Shown here: positions 3,668 to 13,927 of the stretch, piece by piece
Layout: each line of letters opens with the position of its first letter
Numbering within the stretch: position 1 is the first letter of the stretch
IMG/VR virus record: IMGVR_UViG_3300042348_001111
Coordinates: 107,453-121,380 of that record
Source: a virus
Lineage: Duplodnaviria > Heunggongvirae > Uroviricota > Caudoviricetes
Reading direction: 5' to 3' (one strand)
Length of the DNA: 13,928 bases
Program-made: the position numbers and the translations under genes
The notes under the pieces: generated by a model
The model's input: the letters and a program-made list of their open reading frames with translations, nothing else
Told to the model about the DNA's origin: nothing
The model's database searches: none

Positions 3668-6600
3668 CTATTGATTACGCTTCATTATGTCAATTCTGTA
3701 GTTAGGATCTGCAAAATCGCGGAAATTTTTAAGACCTGTAAGATCCATAAAATCCTTAGCAATCTTAGGGTCACCCTTCTCGTAAACACCGCTTTTGCGT
3801 GAGTAAAACGCGTCTTTCCATATCTCCTGGTAGTATTCACTATCATACATAGGATCAGGTTCCTGACCACCATTCATAAGCATTGCTTGACCATAGTAGA
3901 ACGTATGGCTGCCCAAACGCTGCAAAGCTGTAAATTCACGCACCAGAGGAACTGCAGTAGTAAAGTTCTTGATATACTCTTGAGAACCGCCGCCTACAGG
4001 AAACATGGAGGTTGCTTCACCCTTTACACCCCACAGGATGCGTATCGCGTTACCCTCCAAAAAGCTCAGTTCTTCATCTTCATCGTTCTTTTTGCGTACA
4101 TACATTAGTGCCATCATAGACACCATTGTCAGAATGGCCATTACAAGTGCATCACGCGATGCTTGGTCCATCTTGCGAGAAAGCAGTTCACCCAGTTGGT
4201 TCTGGTTAGTCTTGCTCATATGCTTAGACCCACGAATCCAGTGCTTCATTGCGTAACCTGGACCATAGTTCCTAAAGACAATCCCTACAGCTCTCCAGTA
4301 ACCCAAGGCAGCTTCACCAGCTTCCCAGTTGGGACGCAGGTAACCAAAACGGTTCAGCAATTGTGGCACCAGATACTTTCTGAAAAACATCACAATTGTA
4401 CCAATGGGAGACTCCTCAAGCTTTGTCTGGTCAGCTTTGGCGTAGTTACCCTGGGTGCGGCGCATCTCAGAATAGATAATATTGCGCACACGGTTCTCAT
4501 CCTCCTGGTCATACTCTACATCCTGCCTGCGCTGAAGTTGACCGGTGTTGTCCTTGTAGTAGATTTCATGCACAGGAATCATGACATCCTCACCGTTAGC
4601 ATCTTTCTGATAGATATTGTTGCCCTGAGGATCTTTACCTGCAATAACGCGATAGCGATTGTTGTTCATCACTGCGTACATGACTGTGACAGCGATCTCT
4701 GTGTCACCCTTGTCCTGGAACATGAACCCAAGCTCCTGGATACTGGTCATATGTGAAGCTACTTTGCGTTTTCTTCCACCAGTTACCTCGTTCATGTATC
4801 CTAAGAAGTCTTTCTGTGCAGGGTTAAAGAACCGGTACAGCATGGTAGATTCACTGACATCACCAATTTTGCCAAAGTCTGCAAAGTAGTTGTGTAAAAA
4901 TCCATTGTAACCATACACCTTGCTTTTAGCCCACATGTAGTCTTTACGCGAGTATTGGTCAGACGCAAGACCACCTGCAGCAATAAACGCCTGCACGTTA
5001 CCAGAAATGTAGTTTTTGGTCTGGTTCACTAGGTCAAATCCAATACGTATAAAGGATGAGTAAGCAAGTGCTGAGTTTAGCTTTTTGTTGATAGCACGAT
5101 CTCCGGCAGCACCGCTTTTGCTTTGTCCATAGAGAAACTTGCGTTTTTCAAAGTTCAGAATGCTGAGCATAGTCTCAAGCTCTTCCACACGTTCTTGCAT
5201 GTTTACCTGGATACTGTTGCCTTTTTCATCAGGCTCTGTCATAAACTTCTTTCCTGTACCTACTTCTTTACGTAGATTCGTAAGCTGCATCTCAAAAAAT
5301 GCAATGTACTGCTCTACTGCAGGTGCCACTTTTTGCATGGCAATGTTGTGCTGAGCTTCAACAGTGTACTTCATAATAGCCCCAATAGCATCACGTGTCT
5401 GCAGTTCTTCAGGAAGCTGCTCTGTAAACCTATGACGCAGCTTGCCATTCAGGTCTCCATACATGCCATCTACCTGATCAATCTTACTATGAGTACGCCA
5501 GGTGTTTTCAGCAAACTTCTGATACTCACCATTGAGTGAACCCACAAGACCTTTTCTGGCAATATTCTCTACAGTGCTTGCGGCAAAACCTGGTACCAAA
5601 TAACCCATCTTACGACCTTCAACTTTTTGCTGAATGTCAAAGTACATAGTCATTAAGTCGTTGTAGAAACTAAACAGCTCTGGGTCTGCCATCAGCTTTC
5701 TGTACTTGTTAGAGATGTTTGGAGAACTCTCAAAACCTGGGCGTATCACATACTGACCATCACTGTTCTGCATTACAGTCTTGGGCATAGGAATGCCTTC
5801 AGGACTCTGTAAAAAGTCAGGGTTCTTGGCGCTTTCTTTGATACGCTTGATTTTGTACTTGGGATGCGGCACTGTTTCCATGTATAGTGAATACAAGGAC
5901 TCAACTGGCAAGTTCTCAAAGTTGTATGACTTAGGCAGTGCATTTTGCCTTACATCATAACCGGTAGTGACAGACTGGTATTTGTTATTGTGATGCAGAT
6001 TGTACCAGGTGCGAAACTCTTTTTCTTTTTTACTGAAATTAGCTTCTGCTTTACTTAAAGCAGTTTGTGCTGCGTCAATTTCTTTTTTGTCTGCCTTGGT
6101 AGTTGCTGTGGCAAGATCGTTTTCTGCGGTAATCATCTCCCGCTGCGCGGCGTAAAGGATCTTAAGTTTTTCATCAAAAGTGTCCAGGTATCCTTGTGCA
6201 AGACGCTTCTCAGAAATCTTTTTAATCTCGTTGGATATCTGCACAAGTTGTGCTTTCTGCTGAATATCAAGCATGCCGGTGTTTCTCTTTTCCAACATGA
6301 TTTCTTCTATCAAACCTGCAATTTCATCAAGTCTTGTCACATGATCCTCGCTCATAAACTTAGGCTGCAGACGTCCTCCTACTTTGTACTGACGCAGAAT
6401 AGCATTACGTTCATCCATCAGTTCTTTTATCTCAGGATCACTTCCTGCAATGGCAGCTTTTGCGTCATAGAGAAGACCCAGTTGTTCATGCCAGTTAAGC
6501 ATCTGCAGATCATTACGCATAGCTACTACAGTTTCACCGTCCTCATTGACTAAATCTACAGATCCTGCTGCACGTTCTGTGACAACTGTCCATATCTGAT

Positions 6601-9600
6601 CCTGGTACATGACATTAGTGCCGCGCGTAAGTTCTTGAGGCAATTCAGGTCTTTTTGTTGGACGCTGTACCTCATTGGTCTTCTGCCACTTTTCCCAAAG
6701 TTCAGGGTGTGAATCTTTATAGCGTACCATAGCACTATCGCGCATACGCTCATAGAAATTGATGTTTACATCATACTCATAGAGCTCATTGAGCTGATCC
6801 ATGTACTGTGCATACTCAGGACTCATTTCTTTTGCCTGTTGGCGAAGAGTTCTGATTTCCTGTTCAAGTTCTTGTAAACGCTCAAAGTCGTACTCTTCCA
6901 AGAGTATTTCATTACCCTTGCCTACATCATAGACAATCGTTTCCATTTCAAAGTAGCGTTTCTGCAACTCTTCACGAATAGATTGAGGCAAAGCTTTTTG
7001 CAAAGAATAAAATGCTTCTGTGTAAGGAAGCTGTGCGTTGTCTATCATCCATTGTAGGTACTGGTCTTTGTACTGTTCATATTCAGCAACTTTGTCCAAG
7101 TAAATCTGTTTTGCAGCAGGACCATCTGACTCCGTAGCTTTCATGTGACTGTCAGCTTTAAGAGCACTCATCTCTTTTCTGAAAACTTGCAACTTAAGAT
7201 TGTATTCTTTAAACGTGTTTTTGTATGCTTCAGTGTAGGGTGCACTCATATACAGCCGCCGCTGTGTTTTTAACTCACCTTTATCCAGATAAGTATGGTC
7301 GCGGTACTCAGAAACTATGTCGTTGAGCTCTTCTACAGTGTAACGCTGCAAGAGCGCATCTCGCTTTTGGTCAAACTTCATTGACGCAAAGTTGTTCTGA
7401 ATAGCAAGACGCGCTTGTGCTTCTGCATTTTTCAGCATAATAGTAAACGCACTGACCGCTAATTCTGAGTTGGACGCAGAAGAGATAAACTGATCCATAA
7501 AAGTATTACGAAACAGCCCTGAACCTGAAAAAGTACCCTGACTTCCTACATAGTTTTGAGCATTAGGATCTCTAAGACCATTAATGTATTTCTCTAAAAA
7601 CTCATCATTAAACATATATCCGCTTTCCAGCAGTGCTTTTTTTTGCAGGATTTGTCTTTGCAGTTGTTCCATCTGCACCAGTACGCTTGGATCTATACCA
7701 CCTTGTGCAAGCGTTTCAGCCACACGTCTTTTATAAGAACTGTCCATAAACATCAATGCCTTGTGCTTAAAAGCTTTGAGAATTGACGCAGATTTGCCTT
7801 GTTCTAGGTCTTGTAGTTGTTGCTCCAGCTTTTTGATTTGTAACTCAAGAACTTCTTTGAGTTCTTTGTTTACATTAGTAAAGATTTTTTCTCCCGGAAC
7901 TTTTAAAACCTGCACAGCATTGTGTAAAGCAGTATGCCTAAACGCTGCTGCAATGTTGTTCAAAGCGCCATCTATTGCAGTAGTCTTAGATTCAAAAAGT
8001 TCATTTACTACAAAAGCATTTTCAGTATTCTTACTTGCTTCAGTAATAGTTTCTTTTAAAAGATCAAAAACCAGACTCAGTGAATTACTCATCTGGTAGA
8101 TTTTTAGAATCTCTTGTCCTTCTTTGCTTATTGCGAGATCAGGAGACAGTACAAACTTATCCATCAAGTTATCTGCAAGGTTGCTAAGTCTTGTGACATC
8201 GCGCTCAACTGTATCCAAAAGGTTTGAGAAATTATACGCAAAAGATAGCTCACTGTCGTCTGTGACCTTGCTTACAATATCCTGGTAAGTGCGCAGTGTG
8301 CTGCGGCGTGTTTCAAGTGCTGCCAACAGTACATTGTCGTTGCCTTCTCTTTTGAGTTTTTCAATCTGTATTAAAGTGTCGTTAAGTTCTGTATTGATAG
8401 CTCCCTGTATCTTAGTTTTGAGAGCTGTGTTTTGTTTTTCAGTAATCTTAAAATCACTGATTAAAGCTTTTCTTTTTGATTCTGCCTGAGCTTCTTCAGA
8501 AATAGGGATCTGCTGATCTACAGTTTTTCTGAAAGAATCAAGTTTTTGATAACCAAAAGTAGGTTCTGTTTTCCAATACCCATTGTTGTTGGGAACATTG
8601 GCTCCTTTTGCATAGTCGTAGTAGTACTTCTCGTCAAAGACATGTATGGCAGCACCTTCAAACTTGCCGTCATCGTCTGTTTCATACATCAGTGCCACAA
8701 TGCTTTGATCATTGACCTCTAGGCCATTTTGTATCAGCATGTTTTCATAGACCTTCAATTGCAAAGTCCAAGTGTCATAAGCTGACCGGTTAGTACCTTT
8801 GAATGCTGCTTCTGTACCAGGTTTGTTGTCTACAGTAAAGGTTTTTTCAGCAAGATGAACCAGTGCACCGTCTACGTTCACAGACCTTGTGCCATCTGGA
8901 TTTGTTTCCATAAGGCGCTTAACTTTCTTGGTCTTAAAGTCAAACACGTTTACACGTCCTTGAGAGTCAATTAAGAGCAAGTCAAGACGACCCACTACCA
9001 TGCTGCCTGTCTTTGTGGTACCTGTAATAGTAACCTCTGGCAGAATCATGAAGCCTTTGTCATTAAAGACTGTGATATGCATAGCAAGACCCCGCGCCAT
9101 TTCAAACATGGCTTGTTCAGTGAGGTTGTCAATATTGAAAGGATACTTTTCTTTGTAGTTTTTTAACGCGTTGTCAAAAAACTCTTGTGTAATTACATCA
9201 TAAATGGCAACACCAGACGTAAGACTTTCTACCTGTGCAAGCTCTAAAGCTTCATGCATAAACGTACCAAACAGTTTGAACGCTTCATACTTAGAAGGAT
9301 CTCCCTTAAAGTCAGAAGCACCAATAAAGTTTGAAACACTGACCGTCTTTTTGGGAGGCATGCCGTTTTTGACAAGTTGAATATTCTCACGCAAAAACTC
9401 CTGTTGCCGCATGTTCATTTCCATAAGCTTGTCAAGCGTGACTCTTTGCAAAGGTTTAGCACTAAACCTAGCACGCTGAAGCATTGTCATTTGAGCTATC
9501 GCACGCTCCAGTTTAAACTCATCTGAACTTTTGCTGATCTGCTCATCTTTTTCTTCAGCTTTTAGACTAGCCAAAAGCCTTTGTGCGTCATAAACATCAG

Positions 9601-9706
9601 GTGTCTCATTGTTGTTTAGGGTGTAAGCCGTCATGGCGTTACCTTCACCTAAAGCATTAACAAGACGCTTCCACTCAGGACTGTCGGGGTAAGGGCATGT
9701 GTTCAT
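3668..9706 (-). CDS. Giant virion cargo/ejection protein with N-terminal PD-(D/E)xK nuclease (2,012 aa)
   Basis: Uninterrupted 6-kb ORF with an MNTCP...EWKRLVNALGE start. Nuclease motifs, a long helical/coiled-coil body, and C-terminal TQGNY...IVMFFRKYL plus a hydrophobic helix, as I recall for crAss-like giant virion proteins. Confidence 0.8.
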   Translation of the reverse strand: MNTCPYPDSPEWKRLVNALGEGNAMTAYTLNNNETPDVYDAQRLLASLKAEEKDEQISKSSDEFKLERAIAQMTMLQRARFSAKPLQRVTLDKLMEMNMRQQEFLRENIQLVKNGMPPKKTVSVSNFIGASDFKGDPSKYEAFKLFGTFMHEALELAQVESLTSGVAIYDVITQEFFDNALKNYKEKYPFNIDNLTEQAMFEMARGLAMHITVFNDKGFMILPEVTITGTTKTGSMVVGRLDLLLIDSQGRVNVFDFKTKKVKRLMETNPDGTRSVNVDGALVHLAEKTFTVDNKPGTEAAFKGTNRSAYDTWTLQLKVYENMLIQNGLEVNDQSIVALMYETDDDGKFEGAAIHVFDEKYYYDYAKGANVPNNNGYWKTEPTFGYQKLDSFRKTVDQQIPISEEAQAESKRKALISDFKITEKQNTALKTKIQGAINTELNDTLIQIEKLKREGNDNVLLAALETRRSTLRTYQDIVSKVTDDSELSFAYNFSNLLDTVERDVTRLSNLADNLMDKFVLSPDLAISKEGQEILKIYQMSNSLSLVFDLLKETITEASKNTENAFVVNELFESKTTAIDGALNNIAAAFRHTALHNAVQVLKVPGEKIFTNVNKELKEVLELQIKKLEQQLQDLEQGKSASILKAFKHKALMFMDSSYKRRVAETLAQGGIDPSVLVQMEQLQRQILQKKALLESGYMFNDEFLEKYINGLRDPNAQNYVGSQGTFSGSGLFRNTFMDQFISSASNSELAVSAFTIMLKNAEAQARLAIQNNFASMKFDQKRDALLQRYTVEELNDIVSEYRDHTYLDKGELKTQRRLYMSAPYTEAYKNTFKEYNLKLQVFRKEMSALKADSHMKATESDGPAAKQIYLDKVAEYEQYKDQYLQWMIDNAQLPYTEAFYSLQKALPQSIREELQKRYFEMETIVYDVGKGNEILLEEYDFERLQELEQEIRTLRQQAKEMSPEYAQYMDQLNELYEYDVNINFYERMRDSAMVRYKDSHPELWEKWQKTNEVQRPTKRPELPQELTRGTNVMYQDQIWTVVTERAAGSVDLVNEDGETVVAMRNDLQMLNWHEQLGLLYDAKAAIAGSDPEIKELMDERNAILRQYKVGGRLQPKFMSEDHVTRLDEIAGLIEEIMLEKRNTGMLDIQQKAQLVQISNEIKKISEKRLAQGYLDTFDEKLKILYAAQREMITAENDLATATTKADKKEIDAAQTALSKAEANFSKKEKEFRTWYNLHHNNKYQSVTTGYDVRQNALPKSYNFENLPVESLYSLYMETVPHPKYKIKRIKESAKNPDFLQSPEGIPMPKTVMQNSDGQYVIRPGFESSPNISNKYRKLMADPELFSFYNDLMTMYFDIQQKVEGRKMGYLVPGFAASTVENIARKGLVGSLNGEYQKFAENTWRTHSKIDQVDGMYGDLNGKLRHRFTEQLPEELQTRDAIGAIMKYTVEAQHNIAMQKVAPAVEQYIAFFEMQLTNLRKEVGTGKKFMTEPDEKGNSIQVNMQERVEELETMLSILNFEKRKFLYGQSKSGAAGDRAINKKLNSALAYSSFIRIGFDLVNQTKNYISGNVQAFIAAGGLASDQYSRKDYMWAKSKVYGYNGFLHNYFADFGKIGDVSESTMLYRFFNPAQKDFLGYMNEVTGGRKRKVASHMTSIQELGFMFQDKGDTEIAVTVMYAVMNNNRYRVIAGKDPQGNNIYQKDANGEDVMIPVHEIYYKDNTGQLQRRQDVEYDQEDENRVRNIIYSEMRRTQGNYAKADQTKLEESPIGTIVMFFRKYLVPQLLNRFGYLRPNWEAGEAALGYWRAVGIVFRNYGPGYAMKHWIRGSKHMSKTNQNQLGELLSRKMDQASRDALVMAILTMVSMMALMYVRKKNDEDEELSFLEGNAIRILWGVKGEATSMFPVGGGSQEYIKNFTTAVPLVREFTALQRLGSHTFYYGQAMLMNGGQEPDPMYDSEYYQEIWKDAFYSRKSGVYEKGDPKIAKDFMDLTGLKNFRDFADPNYRIDIMKRNQ
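8672..9346 (-). other. RecB-family PD-(D/E)xK nuclease domain (boundaries approximate)
   Basis: SVS..IG...GTFMHEALE...PEVTI...GRLDLLLIDSQGRVNVFDFKT (8924-8992)...QLKVY. The catalytic E, D, D-x-K and QxxxY motifs are all present. Confidence 0.85.
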
Positions 9707-9709
9707 AGG

Positions 9710-12700
9710 TTATAGGCACTTGATTTTTTCCAGGATCTGATTTGTTGGGGTAGAAGCTCTGAGGTTTGCAATCATTGCCGCAGCAGCTTGTCTGAAACTC
9801 TCTTTAGAAAGACGCTTGCTAGACTGGTTGTAAAGATAGTCAACAACCGGTTGTGTAAGGTTTAGATTGTTCATGTCCATTGTCACATTTCTATTCTGAG
9901 AAGCCAGTTCAAGTACTGCAACACGGTCGCCGTTGTTCTCTTGCCATTGCATGGCTTTATTAGTAGTCATAGAGATGATGGTGTTCTTAGGTGTCACCAA
10001 ATACTGAGAGCCTTTGTAGTCTACTAGAACTGCTTTACTACCAGGAATCGCTGTAAGGTTAGAAGCAGACACTGACTTTTTAGAAGCAGGGCCCTCTAAA
10101 GTGGGATTGTAAACCTGCACGGTACTATTACTGTTTATCTTAGTCACTATGAAAGTCTCGTTGTTGAACTTGACAAATTGACCTGGTTCAATAACTGCTT
10201 CTGTCTGTTGTTCTACAGGTGTTGCCTGCATCATGCTGAGAAGCATGTCTGTAGCATCCGGCATGCTAGTCATCTCTTCTTGAGGTGCTTGTGCTGCAGA
10301 AGTTAATGCTGTTGCTTTACTCCATCTAGAATAACCATTTAATCTTTCTTCTGTATAGCCGTTCTTTTGCAGATATTCTGCAACAAGCTGATCTGACAGA
10401 TTTCCTTTTTCATACTGATTACCTACTCTAAATGAAGCATTTGCTTTTATAGCTGCATTTAATAAAGATTTATACTTAGTGCTTAGAGTTTCAATAATTT
10501 GTTCGCGAGTCACACCTCTAAATAAACCGCTTCCTGATACCATTACAATGTCAGTTTCAGTGTAGTTTCCAGTGTTAGCTTTATTTCCCCAAGCTTCTTT
10601 GTACTTTTTAGTAGAGCTTACAGCTGCATTGCCTGACTGAAAACCAATATACTGAGTAGATTCTTCAGCCATCTGAATATCTTTAGCTGCGTTGCCAGAC
10701 ATGTCTGTGGGTTTAACTCCTGCTGTTATTAATGGGTTTTCTTTTTTAACACTAACAGGAGCTTGAGCACCTTGTTCACCACTAACAAATTCTTTAAATC
10801 CTTCTATATCTTGTTTACTACCTAATATATTATATTCAGTAGTAGGTTCACTTTTAATATCTTCAAGCATTTGCTTATAAGATGCAGCATGTCTATCAAT
10901 AGTTTCATCAGAAACAGCAGCTCTGTTTTCACTTCTTGCTAATTGTGCTTTAATTCTTTGTTTAGCTAATTCTGGATTTAATTCCATTAGCTTATATTGA
11001 ATATTAGCAGTAGGTATTTCTTTTTTAATAGCTTCTATAAAAGGTAATCTTTTATCTTTGGTAATATTAGTAGTATCAAATACAACTTGTTTACCTTGTT
11101 TTATAGCTTGTACAGCTCGGTTAGCAGCTTCAATATAAATTTCTTTATCTTTAGATTTATCATTAATATCACCTGTAAATTCAACTCTCATTGCATCAGG
11201 TTCTATAATTACTAAATTTTCTTGAGGTAAAGATTTTATAAATGTAGATTTACCACTACCACTTGTACCTATTGGTAATATAACATCAGGTTGCTTAGTA
11301 TCAAGATATTGAGAGTATAGTTGTTGAGCTTGTTGTTTTTGTTGTGGGGTTATATTATACTTTACTAAGTCTTTTGCTGAAACACCGTTTTTTGTAAAAA
11401 AACCATCTTTATCTTGTTTATATCCTAATTCTAATAATCTATCAATAAATACTTGGTATTGTTTATTTTTTAAATCTCTTGAATCAAAAGCTACAAAATC
11501 AAAATTTTCAGCGTTTATATCTTTTAAAGTACTTTCAATTTGGTTTTTTCTTAAAACTTCATTTGTAAATATAATACTCAATTTTCTTTGGTATATCTCA
11601 TCATTGGTTCTTTTACTAAACCCTAAAGCTTCATATACAGCATTAGCTAATTCAGGATTAGATTCAAATAGTTCTTCTACTCCTGGTTTTACTTGTGCAG
11701 GTTGTGTTGTAGCAGGTTTTGTTGCGACAGGTGCCGGTGCAGCAACAGCAGGAAGCTTTGCTTTGTTAGTTGTGTAAGCAACGTACTTCTCAATCTCTTG
11801 CTTAGACATACCTATAGGTGACATAAGTCCAGTGGAGACAACAGCAGGAATAGCTTTGTACTTGGCAATGCTGCCTTCTACGCTGGACGCGCCAGTACCT
11901 GTGATAGACCTGAACATACTCTCACCAAAGTTCTGATATTCTACTTGTTCACCTACACCTTGCAGTAAGTATGTTATACTTTCTTGTCTGCTGTCAATCT
12001 TGAACATCAAAGGAAACTTGTAAACGCCAGGTTTGCCAAATACGCGTTTTACACCAAAGTTCTTTCCTAGTTCAAACATGGTATCATCGTTTGCCTCTGG
12101 TATTAATGCTGGCTTTGACATGTCAAGTGTGATTTCACTGACCACTTCACCAGCTGCGTTTCTGTTCTGAGGTGTGTATCCTTTTGATGCGTTTTTGGGT
12201 GCTTGACCCATAAATTCCATCAACACATTGCTTGCAATACTAATACGCTCATTATCTGTAGCTGTTTCAGAAAACCTAAAAGACTGCATGAAGCTTCTGT
12301 CTTTTGCAAAAGAGAATTGTCTTGCAATCCTGATCTTGTTGTTGTTTGCCTCCTGACTGGCTGCATCTGCCATAAGCATGAAGACCTCGTCAAAAAAGTT
12401 GTACACGTCTGCCTCTGTAGCTTCATTACCTAAGATGCTTTTTACAGCACTCATCAGTTTTACACGATTACCCTTTGCATTCTCAAGCGCTTTTACAAAG
12501 TCATTAATGTAAGGGGAGAAAGGTCGCATCATCTCTGTAGGAAGAAGTTGTAAGAACGAACCTGACTTGTACATGAGACCTGTTTTGGCAAGCTCGTAAT
12601 AGAAAAGCTTTTTGGCAAAAAGGTTTTCTTTGATCATGAGCGCGTATGCGTCGTCTGTTACATCGGATGCGTAGCTACCTGAAATGTTTGCTTTAGTGAC

Positions 12701-13927
12701 CAGTTTAAGACCTCTTTCTGTGATCTTTACGCCTTTTTCTGTAAAAGCAGCAGCGTCGCCATTTTCACTGACCAATAACTGTAAGAACTTGTTGTCAGGA
12801 TACTTCTGTAGCATCTGTTCTACTTCGTCCTTTAAATTGTTAGTAAAAAAATACACTGCTTTAAATGCATCACGCAGGTTTTGATCATCCCGTGCAAGCA
12901 GGTTGTCTATAGCCTCAACGCCCGTTGTTCTAGATCCTGGCATCAAACGCTGGTACTGACGAAGAGCAATATAGCTGGTGATCATCTTTGCAATGGTGCT
13001 CTTATCTTCAAAGACCTCCTCAAACAGTTGCTTGACCGGCGCAAAAAAGCTTGTTCTTTCCAGAAACAACTTAGAAGACTGCTCATTCAAATCTTGCATG
13101 GCCTCAAAAAGATACTTGAATACCTGGTCATCCTCAAAGATTTTACTTACAGACTCACTTGTAAAAATGCTGTTCTCGCCGTCTTTAGCAAGATCAGTCA
13201 TGTTTTTAAGTAGCTTGTCAAAAGTTACAAACCTGGGGTTTAGTTTCTTAAACGTGTTCAGAATGCTTCCTGCTCTTTGAACAGCAAACTGCTGTTGTGC
13301 CTGACTTGCATAGTAGCTGAGAAGAACGATGCGCTGAGCATCTTCGCTTAAATTTTCAACTGTGTTGGTGTCATTGTTTACAGCTTTGACATCATACCCA
13401 ATTTCTTTAGATGTGAGAGTATTGCTATTAACCTTGGCGGCATCTAGTTTTTGAGCCTTAAAGCTAAGTGCAATGTTTTCTTTTTTCAGTGCAATATCAT
13501 AAGACTTAGAAAGAGGAGAAACAACACCAGCGTTTTTCAATTCTTCAAGAACACCAGGATTTTCTTTTACCAGTTTTGCAATCTGATTTTTGACTTCTTG
13601 ATGTAAAAACTTTGAACTGTTGACATCAGAACTGCTGATGGCGTACTTAGTAGCCTGGACTGCTTCAACAGCGTTTTTTACTTCTGGTAGGAAGTTAAAC
13701 CCAACTGCAAACGTAGGCGAAAGACCCAGTCCTATCATTACAAGCGTGGTGCCTACGTTTTCTTCGTTCATGCCCAATGCAGAAGGTATAGGTTTTTTCA
13801 TACCATCTGCAAACATGCCCAGGATGTTTCCTATGCTTGCAATAACGCGCTGGTTTTCCTCACTCAGAGTACCAAAGTTGGTGTATTTCCTCAAAGTAAG
13901 GTCATACTCAGTGTCACCGGTTTCTGT
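9710..13927 (-). CDS. Giant virion protein, probably the C-terminal part of a crAss-like virion RNA polymerase; 5'-truncated
   Basis: The frame stays open upstream of the called TTG at 13894 (TETGDTEYDLTL...) to the window edge. The segment ILGMFADGMKKP...MNEENVGTTLVMIGLG...FLPEV resembles the D..K.P/N/LG/P segment I recall downstream of the active site in crAss-like RNAPs. No DxDxD catalytic motif is visible. The CDS itself is certain; the RNAP identity is about 0.55. Confidence 0.7.
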   Translation of the reverse strand, partial: TETGDTEYDLTLRKYTNFGTLSEENQRVIASIGNILGMFADGMKKPIPSALGMNEENVGTTLVMIGLGLSPTFAVGFNFLPEVKNAVEAVQATKYAISSSDVNSSKFLHQEVKNQIAKLVKENPGVLEELKNAGVVSPLSKSYDIALKKENIALSFKAQKLDAAKVNSNTLTSKEIGYDVKAVNNDTNTVENLSEDAQRIVLLSYYASQAQQQFAVQRAGSILNTFKKLNPRFVTFDKLLKNMTDLAKDGENSIFTSESVSKIFEDDQVFKYLFEAMQDLNEQSSKLFLERTSFFAPVKQLFEEVFEDKSTIAKMITSYIALRQYQRLMPGSRTTGVEAIDNLLARDDQNLRDAFKAVYFFTNNLKDEVEQMLQKYPDNKFLQLLVSENGDAAAFTEKGVKITERGLKLVTKANISGSYASDVTDDAYALMIKENLFAKKLFYYELAKTGLMYKSGSFLQLLPTEMMRPFSPYINDFVKALENAKGNRVKLMSAVKSILGNEATEADVYNFFDEVFMLMADAASQEANNNKIRIARQFSFAKDRSFMQSFRFSETATDNERISIASNVLMEFMGQAPKNASKGYTPQNRNAAGEVVSEITLDMSKPALIPEANDDTMFELGKNFGVKRVFGKPGVYKFPLMFKIDSRQESITYLLQGVGEQVEYQNFGESMFRSITGTGASSVEGSIAKYKAIPAVVSTGLMSPIGMSKQEIEKYVAYTTNKAKLPAVAAPAPVATKPATTQPAQVKPGVEELFESNPELANAVYEALGFSKRTNDEIYQRKLSIIFTNEVLRKNQIESTLKDINAENFDFVAFDSRDLKNKQYQVFIDRLLELGYKQDKDGFFTKNGVSAKDLVKYNITPQQKQQAQQLYSQYLDTKQPDVILPIGTSGSGKSTFIKSLPQENLVIIEPDAMRVEFTGDINDKSKDKEIYIEAANRAVQAIKQGKQVVFDTTNITKDKRLPFIEAIKKEIPTANIQYKLMELNPELAKQRIKAQLARSENRAAVSDETIDRHAASYKQMLEDIKSEPTTEYNILGSKQDIEGFKEFVSGEQGAQAPVSVKKENPLITAGVKPTDMSGNAAKDIQMAEESTQYIGFQSGNAAVSSTKKYKEAWGNKANTGNYTETDIVMVSGSGLFRGVTREQIIETLSTKYKSLLNAAIKANASFRVGNQYEKGNLSDQLVAEYLQKNGYTEERLNGYSRWSKATALTSAAQAPQEEMTSMPDATDMLLSMMQATPVEQQTEAVIEPGQFVKFNNETFIVTKINSNSTVQVYNPTLEGPASKKSVSASNLTAIPGSKAVLVDYKGSQYLVTPKNTIISMTTNKAMQWQENNGDRVAVLELASQNRNVTMDMNNLNLTQPVVDYLYNQSSKRLSKESFRQAAAAMIANLRASTPTNQILEKIKCL
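10310..11692 (-). other. AT-rich in-frame island inside the giant gene
   Basis: Hand counts of G+C per 60-nt line: 14 at 10801, 13 at 11461 and 14 at 10441, versus 29 at 11881 and 24 at 9961. One internal line (10501) has 26, so the left part is mixed. Confidence 0.75.
10829..11296 (-). other. P-loop kinase domain, polynucleotide-kinase/AAA_33-like, in frame within the giant protein
   Basis: Walker A GTSGSGKST (from 11269), DxxR (DAMR), VVFDTTN, and an Arg-bearing lid (AKQRIKAQLARSENRAAV). The motif order matches T4 Pnk and bacterial Pnkp kinase modules. Confidence 0.85.

Follow-up and report, generated by a model that had tools for sequence, protein, structure and literature searches.

Comparative evidence for a two-slot, motif-bracketed unit of putative enzyme domains within a homologue of the crAss-type virion RNA polymerase

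Phages and conjugative elements encode polyvalent proteins, giant chains of disparate domains that are predicted to enter the host together with the DNA and that have accreted the same domains repeatedly, with an ADP-ribosyltransferase (ART) fused in some cases to a virion RNA polymerase (Iyer, Burroughs, Anand, de Souza and Aravind 2017, PMC5512222). An example of an injected enzyme discussed there is T4 Alt, an ADP-ribosyltransferase packaged in the phage head (PMC5512222), while crassvirus polymerases, which reach ~6,000 amino acids (aa), are packaged and thought to be ejected in a partly unfolded form (PMC10136315). The stretch of DNA analyzed here (hereafter the window) comprises 13,928 nucleotides (nt) from a virus of the class Caudoviricetes (positions 107,453 to 121,380 of the IMG/VR record IMGVR_UViG_3300042348_001111). 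Its subject is a gene for a homologue of such a polymerase, which is interrupted near its 3' end by a low-GC block with three short motifs (A, B and C), two segments enclosed by them (an orphan segment X between A and B and a kinase between B and C) and a further domain (Z).

In the polymorphic toxins of bacteria, such as CdiA (with the motif VENN) and Rhs (with PxxxxDPxGL), a short motif borders a variable effector domain, and homology at this border permits replacement of the cassette; these cassettes are C-terminal, have a one-sided border and are paired with immunity genes. In phages, the gp38 adhesin of the T-even group is the subject of Trojet et al. 2011, who cite Tetart et al. 1998. 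They describe gp38 as an alternation of conserved glycine-rich motifs, thought to form its structural core, with hypervariable segments, which are swapped in frame by phage-phage exchange (PMC3157838). The original prediction for the window, drawn from its sequence alone, was that motifs A, B and C act as homology arms and structural joints, letting phages exchange effector domains in frame on an injected protein.

The block was delineated by comparison with a 107-kb viral contig (L046, 43% GC), whose backbone is 94.7% nt identical to that of the window upstream of the island and 94.0% identical downstream of it. This contig carries 17 nt instead of window positions 10305-11719, a difference of 1,398 nt or 466 codons. 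In the codon alignment the extra sequence extends from the first codon of motif A to a point after domain Z (~10310), and the heptamer GCACAAG is present at both junctions, inside Pro/Ala/Gln linker codons. On this alignment, positions 10305-11719 represent a 466-codon in-frame block inserted in a Pro/Ala linker near the polymerase C-terminus. This amends the predicted A-B-C cassette, whose slots stand, since the whole A-to-Z block appears to be itself one linker insertion. The Pro/Ala/Thr linker and the three motifs were found in the translation exactly where the prediction had placed them; the elements of the region, in the order of the protein, are:

11768..13927, minus strand: polymerase backbone, aa 1-720 of the window open reading frame (ORF); 94.7% nt identical to L046 and 81% to L047 (see below)
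11693..11767, minus strand: Pro/Ala/Thr/Gln linker with the left junction; from here on the codons no longer align with those of L046, and GCACAAG lies just before motif A
11618..11692, minus strand: motif A, 25 aa (aa 746-770), first element of the insert; ~30 viral loci match this block alone; short helix in the structure model
11354..11617, minus strand: payload X, slot 1, orphan, 88 aa; no homologue found; pLDDT 42-67 in the first half of its model
11297..11353, minus strand: motif B, 19 aa (aa 859-877); ~30 loci match this block alone; long helix running into the first strand of the kinase
10829..11296, minus strand: polynucleotide-kinase-like P-loop kinase, slot 2, 156 aa; assigned by PF13671, a CthPnkp match, Foldseek and invariant residues
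10784..10828, minus strand: motif C, 15 aa (aa 1034-1048); ~30 loci match this block alone; helix after the kinase
10742..10783, minus strand: short Gly/Gln/Ala/Pro linker between C and Z, read from the translation; the order C-linker-Z is also found in protein P0135
10310..10741, minus strand: domain Z, ~144 aa, last part of the insert; AF2 model with pLDDT 89.7 and pTM 0.85
10262..10309, minus strand: Ala/Gln/Pro linker, right junction; similarity to the empty allele resumes (blastn from 10304)
9710..10261, minus strand: conserved C-terminal domain of the backbone and stop codon; 94% nt identical to L046, last 56 aa 91% identical to L047

A second relative of the same backbone is the 5.2-kb contig L047 from another sample, which is 81-87% nt identical to the window. 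In the same linker it carries motif A, a 161-aa segment with an HExxH motif, motif B, an ART-PolyVal domain (PF18760) and motif C, and this unit forms an island of 22-27% GC within a gene of 42-48% GC. Alignment of the three contigs shows one site in one backbone lineage in three states: empty (L046), with the kinase unit plus Z (window) and with an ART unit (L047). A comparison of payloads on close backbones, suggested along with the original prediction, has thus returned both an empty allele and another payload at exactly the same site. Of these relatives, L046 was the one obtained by the IMG/VR search and L047 came by chance through the protein search.

As a separate observation, the backbone itself is mosaic, as judged from the comparison of L046:9059-11661, L047:2602-5204 and window positions 7293-9877. 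The downstream gene of L047, for a 2,012-aa protein, is 96% identical to that of L046 and 87% to that of the window, and the upstream part of L047 is just 81-84% identical to both.

The GC content over ~10800-11700 is 25-29% (counted per 300 nt) as compared to ~42% on either side, and the frame is kept, so the drop in GC without a frame break noted in the original prediction is real. The GC content of third codon positions (GC3), a check that the prediction had suggested, follows the same course: from 0.40 in the backbone it falls to 0.00-0.11 across A, X, B, the kinase and C (~0.07 for the A-C stretch as a whole), then rises to 0.21 in domain Z and 0.43 in the C-terminal domain. The other 42 loci with motifs or kinase are of 21-37% GC, the same as the cassette; together with the low GC3, this indicates that the composition of the cassette is foreign and matches that of a low-GC pool of other phages. 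Because the island shows no compositional adjustment to the host gene, its turnover is recent, whichever direction it took.

Such an abrupt change of composition at both edges is also what one would expect if the assembler had joined a low-GC island to a polymerase gene. We find a chimera of this kind hardly credible: the frame is kept over 466 codons, another contig of 56 kb (L048) agrees at 100% identity throughout a 7.2-kb stretch including the contig join and both island edges, the contig from the other sample (L047) has an analogous island at the same site, and dozens of independent contigs carry units in giant ORFs. The composition bears equally on a scenario of vertical descent with differential loss, in which an ancestral long array of domains existed at the linker and the present alleles are its remnants, with no import. 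It would account for the linker-to-A junction common to the window and L047, and L046 could be read as a clean deletion between short repeats. It is difficult to reconcile with the GC3 of the unit (0.07 versus 0.40 in the backbone), or with a low-GC island that is present in both the window and L047 and matches the pool of other phages. Furthermore, the kinase is 80-92% nt identical to copies in unrelated genes with unrelated backbones, and neither X and the A|B segment of L047 nor the kinase and the ART are homologous. We therefore regard vertical descent as very improbable.

The wider distribution of the motifs was derived from a protein search with the cassette region, which returned 361 giant proteins, and from the IMG/VR scan, which returned the 42 loci. 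The motifs occur in the order A, B, C in ~60 of 120 retrieved giant proteins, at any position of the chain, and some of these proteins have tandem units, with C directly followed by the next A. Many of the other motif-bearing host ORFs are giant and contain DFDxD, and units lie inside dozens of independent contigs. The interval between B and C (the B|C slot) is mostly occupied by an ART-PolyVal-type domain (PF18760, 81-237 aa), which starts with IFPDSKVKDIVYHG and ends with EPEQIH; P0014 has a 244-aa ART-like variant. This bears out a statement of the original prediction, namely that the motifs recur in giant proteins of crAss-like phages with an ART enclosed by B and C, as well as its remark that a different enzyme lies exactly there in the window, where the slot holds the kinase and no ART-PolyVal (the domain present in L047 and in most other units). 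In the remaining retrieved proteins the slot contains the kinase (6 proteins), a second P-loop domain (2), kinase plus ART (2) or nothing (5).

A profile of the contiguous B-C element, which is free of a kinase bias, was searched exhaustively and matched 338 clusters (50% identity). For the 142 best-ranking representatives, the B|C slot is empty in 35 and contains an ART in 23 and the kinase in one; 10 "other" contents include a few divergent ART-like starts. Extraction and clustering of the intervals between A and B (the A|B slot) yielded 27 sequence clusters among 48 complete units, among them HExxH and GNAT-like segments as well as the kinase itself, which fills this slot in 14 units. One and the same segment at the X position is followed in the B|C slot by the kinase, by an ART or by the second P-loop domain, and where the kinase fills A|B, its partner is one of many ARTs or an empty B|C slot. 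Overall, these comparisons support well the view that the A-C stretch represents a two-slot unit common among phage polyvalent proteins, with short, mostly helical motifs as connectors and interchangeable A|B and B|C contents.

No Pfam model covers A or B-C, and a feature search of the ESM Atlas with A-X-B gave no usable match. When the entire window was compared by megablast with 50,697 phage records, no match was obtained, and tblastn of the cassette against the same records returned only distant Bacillus phage kinases with no motif match; at this sensitivity, the unit is therefore not present in cultured phages.

Several contents of the slots deserve mention in their own right. HExxH segments are found in the A|B slot of L047:1480-1960, L017, L028, L032, L035 and L037 and may be small zincin-like peptidases, which would fit the proposed self-processing of polyvalent proteins. 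The second P-loop domain, unrelated to the kinase, carries GHPGIGKT and occupies the B|C slot of P0105:222-382 and P0108:1044-1204; it opens with the junction residues KQ-DVILP, as the kinase does. In P0018 (1,023 aa) the order is B, kinase, ART, C, followed by DUF7831 and a NADAR domain, so that an ADP-ribosyltransferase and a domain of an ADP-ribose-removing family are on one chain.

At the DNA level, a check suggested with the original prediction was whether identity peaks at the motifs. Blastn of the insert against the 42 loci gave similarity confined to four sharp blocks, three of them at the motifs and the fourth at the kinase, whereas X and Z had no nt match in these loci:

11694-11617, minus strand: block A, ~30 loci, 74-98% nt identity
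11353-11296, minus strand: block B, ~30 loci, 82-100% nt identity
11292-10830, minus strand: kinase block, ~20 loci, 71-92% nt identity
10830-10783, minus strand: block C, ~30 loci, 79-96% nt identity

Between the window and L047, motif B is identical over 58 of 58 nt with unrelated flanks on both sides. In the synonymous comparison of these two genes the motif codons are identical in 49 of 55 cases (19 of 19 in B) as compared to 237 of 365 in the co-linear backbone (Fisher p 1e-4). Across loci, synonymous codon identity reaches 0.86 in A, 0.80 in B and 0.81 in C, versus 0.60-0.76 for equally conserved segments of the kinase. A hybrid element composed of the initial half of A and the final half of B (P0010-12 and L001) has its breakpoints inside the motifs. 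The motif DNA is thus either younger than the sequence around it or under more constraint, which fits (albeit does not prove) repeated recombination.

The kinase block shows a different behavior. Copies of it also occupy the A|B slot, others stand between an unrelated N-terminal head and motif C, and dozens of motif-free proteins contain it as well; across these contexts it is 80-90% identical at the aa level, and its edges are constant everywhere. Of the proposal that B and C serve as arms for kinase exchange, the variability of the B|C slot stands; the rest is called into question, as the kinase moves without the motifs and B and C may form one element (see below). The head, observed in P0013, P0022, P0024, P0028 and P0034 (aa 1-37), is itself conserved over ~37 aa (MACIITY.NK.YTQ.EF) and represents another recurring junction.

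Mobility of the kinase without motifs is among the observations that would be expected if the motifs were conserved for protein reasons only, as the terminal caps (N and C) of an ancestral ART-PolyVal module, as an insertion-tolerant, helical B+C hairpin or as sites of zincin peptidases (in this last version, embedded zincin-like peptidases would cut the polyprotein at the motifs into separate enzymes). Domains would then move by illegitimate recombination, with selection keeping the joins at tolerant points, and the likeness of motif DNA would be a by-product of aa constraint, AT-biased codons and recent spread. B and C are in fact contiguous in many proteins, forming one element of ~35 aa with an empty slot, and rather than being joints alone they may jointly form a single small structural element able to accept inserted domains. 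Moreover, nearly every B leads into the conserved ART start, and a conserved ART end precedes C, the synonymous identity of the ART start equals that of the motifs, and all three motifs are helical in the structure model of the A-C unit (pLDDT 79.7, pTM 0.66). The zincin version, for which the HEAFH at aa 990 of the same protein, the frequent HExxH in the A|B slot and the peptidase processing proposed by Iyer et al. 2017 (PMC5512222) could be adduced, would require a hypothetical cleavage at the motifs. Protein-level constraint would not readily explain a motif B identical at 58 of 58 nt between genes whose backbone synonymous identity is 0.65, a synonymous identity of the motifs (0.80-0.86) above that of equally conserved kinase segments, or the hybrid breakpoints inside the motifs. 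Taken together, we judge conservation for protein reasons only to be unlikely, though by no means negligible. The A-C stretch may also descend from one ancestral domain of a single fold, for which the unit model gives a pTM of 0.66 with X poorly predicted.

With regard to the enzyme itself, the 156-aa kinase claimed between B and C is confirmed by a match to PF13671 (AAA_33; E 2e-15, 57.7 bits), with a weaker one to PF06414 (Zeta_toxin; E 8e-7, 29.1 bits, cut-off 22.3). Phmmer aligned it with the kinase of CthPnkp (4jst, E 4e-7). In a Foldseek search of the model, ranks 1-6 were occupied by CthPnkp (E 1e-7, TM by target 0.70-0.72), and next in order came mammalian PNKP, Pnkp1 and T4 Pnk; no zeta toxin was among the 50 best structural matches listed, which were headed by polynucleotide kinases and included adenylate and APS kinases. 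Ten residues are invariant in 46 kinase copies (K154, S155, T156, D172, R175, D212, R221, R252, R263 and R273), and so are the Walker A K-S/T, D-x-x-R and D-T-T-N signatures, which align with the motifs of CthPnkp. The invariant residues also agree with the residue pattern of T4 Pnk.

The modeled kinase thus shows a T4 Pnk/CthPnkp-like fold with the signature residues, and its predicted substrates are, most likely, the 5'-OH ends of RNA or DNA. The P-loop fold, the Walker A sequence GxSGSGKST, D-x-x-R and D-T-T-N are common to the window kinase and to T4 Pnk and the CthPnkp kinase (PDB 1ly1, 2ia5 and 4jst). In contrast to these, the window kinase, which is at most 25% identical to them, is located inside a virion protein and is not a free early enzyme. 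Pfam and PHROG searches revealed no phosphatase or ligase partner domain in the unit beyond the kinase. In three loci (L016:5911-6951, L017 and L027) a ~135-aa domain is nested in a loop of the kinase (ARSEN in the window, ~10930), after which the kinase resumes in frame.

The other two parts of the insert are not assigned to known families. For segment X, neither the loci nor the retrieved proteins gave a match at the nt or protein level. Domain Z is modeled as a confidently folded, uncharacterized Rossmann-like alpha/beta domain; it had no Pfam family and no PDB match at E <= 0.001, and an ESM Atlas feature search with it gave no usable match. In a structural comparison by VIA-align the scores stayed at Z <= 5.3, with a mixture of Rossmann-like methyltransferases and HAD phosphatases as targets, and the matches in AFDB were two uncharacterized clusters. 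Homologs of this domain with 51-79% identity were found in 15 other giant proteins together with AlkB, RNase H, RecD/PIF1-type helicase or ART domains, and it is met beside the kinase too; it typically lies between QPSTSV linkers and once behind C and a linker, as in the window (P0135). Judging from these occurrences, Z is likewise a wandering module.

The host gene extends beyond the window. The first 174 nt of the source contig (121,380 nt) recur at its end (window 13754-13927 = contig 1-174), and this terminal repeat implies a circular genome of 121,206 nt. The window ORF (9710-13927, minus strand) has a stop-free translation that represents only the last third of the gene; across the contig ends it joins a 2,985-aa ORF at the contig start to give a single gene of 4,333 aa, along which HEAFH (aa 990), DFDVD (aa 2690) and motifs A (aa 3674), B (aa 3787) and C (aa 3962) follow one another. 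In a tblastn search the DFDVD region (P0123:2250-2985) matched the "RNAP catalytic subunit" KP06_gp44 of crAssphage and 68 other crAss-like records (best match E 3e-15, 24.5% identity over 390 aa), which identifies the host protein, described in the original prediction as virion polymerase-like, as a crAss-type virion RNA polymerase fusion. By this homology, the gene product is a homologue of the crAss-type virion RNA polymerase. The polymerase link comes from tblastn alone: Pfam and PHROGs gave no family on the polymerase backbone, and phmmer of the 2,985-aa N-terminal part against PDB gave no match.

An RNAP-like DFDVD region, HEAFH, a Pnk-like kinase and domain Z on one 4,333-aa ORF amount to a polyvalent-type make-up, although a Pfam scan of the window protein gave no ART-PolyVal or LPD match and its HExxH is a bare motif. 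The gene is in a block of giant minus-strand ORFs with matches to a pilot-protein PHROG and to transglycosylase/LysM families. The next gene (window 3668-9706, minus strand) encodes a protein of 2,012 aa, for which the family searches gave a single match, to a PD-(D/E)XK nuclease domain at its N-terminus (PF12705, E 2.5e-5). A role of intragenomic recombination was considered and rejected: a search of the same genome found no other unit copies, the genome holding this one alone.

We consider it probable that four statements hold jointly: the A-Z block is laterally acquired with its frame kept, it contains a two-slot unit, its contents are exchanged through short conserved stretches, and the enzymes are virion-borne. 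According to such a mechanism, co-infecting phages from a low-GC pool would swap units and single payloads, recombining at the short conserved stretches, namely the motifs (45-75 nt, up to 100% nt identity) plus repetitive linker codons. Illegitimate joins would occur as well, with selection retaining those that preserve frame and fold. Being fused to the polymerase, the enzymes would ride in the virion and reach the host cell together with it, and we infer from the crassvirus literature (PMC10136315) that the cassette may be delivered in this way. Once inside, the kinase would most likely phosphorylate 5'-OH ends of RNA or DNA, for example in healing RNA cuts inflicted by the host.

Several points weigh against this joint account. 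Of the swappable in-frame cassettes originally proposed, exchange is upheld, and upheld throughout, by comparison; neither a crossover at a motif nor a recombinant was directly seen, and the case for the motifs as recombination arms, drawn from the block pattern, is circumstantial. The AT richness of the loci alone lifts the expected codon identity to ~0.63, and the ART start also has a synonymous identity of 0.81, so that raised DNA conservation is not specific to the connectors. Constancy of the kinase edges without motifs means that the spread of the kinase needs no B/C arms. The direction of the change at the site is ambiguous, since the linker-to-A junction of the window recurs in the unit of the outgroup, L047; L046 may thus have lost its unit by deletion between the GCACAAG repeats, and it is possible that payloads have been replaced since or that units were gained independently at the site. 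Finally, with a single unit in this genome the exchange partners have to come from other phages, and co-infection is assumed.

A stronger version of the joint account is that low-GC crAss-like and related phages maintain a dedicated two-slot cassette system in their ejected proteins, with connectors kept near-identical at the nt level. We offer this only tentatively, as a possibility that we would not bet on. If true, any co-infecting phage could swap single enzyme domains in frame via the near-identical connectors, and the system would be the equivalent, inside a protein, of integron or polymorphic-toxin cassettes, endowing phages with rapidly changeable enzymes that act before their own gene expression.

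The question is of interest as ejected virion proteins are the first phage molecules met by the host, and their cargo decides the fate of early defenses; crAss-like phages are among the most abundant viruses of the gut and other habitats. In-frame exchange, if it takes place, would explain polymerase genes of 4,000-6,000 codons and the differences of close strains at the polymerase gene. From a practical standpoint, the three motifs provide a handle to harvest hundreds of candidate counter-defense enzymes from metagenomes, many of them (e.g. domain Z) without a family, and the connectors point to natural tolerated insertion sites for loading foreign domains on a packaged phage protein.

Among the known systems, T4 Alt has in common with the unit (as proposed here) the delivery of a ready-made enzyme together with the DNA, prior to phage gene expression. 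It is, however, a separate protein of another ART clade, and we know of no cassette structure in it. Polymorphic toxins may be regarded as the second parallel, with the difference that here the payload is internal, has a two-sided border, is phage-borne and comes without an immunity gene. The nearest mechanistic parallel would be gp38, in which strict short motifs also alternate with non-homologous segments and alleles differ in these segments alone. On the other hand, gp38 swaps the receptor-binding loops of one domain at the tail-fiber tip, whereas whole enzyme domains of 80-360 aa are concerned here, in an internal virion protein, and in the crAss-like case the unit as a whole is mobile too.

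With polyvalent proteins, the window protein shares a giant multi-enzyme chain on a phage virion polymerase. The kinship to this class claimed in the original prediction is confirmed, and so is the claim of a more structured organization, given that conserved motifs and two slots go beyond the description by Iyer et al. 2017, in whose main text (PMC5512222) the words linker and shuffling and the names ART-PolyVal and crAss are all absent. Overall, what is observed is a structured, two-slot, motif-bracketed domain exchange, as seen by comparison, within the already known polyvalent protein class. New with respect to that description are the three junction motifs, the two slots, the empty form, the block structure at the nt level, and a unit that is present, absent or replaced at one site in near-identical genes.

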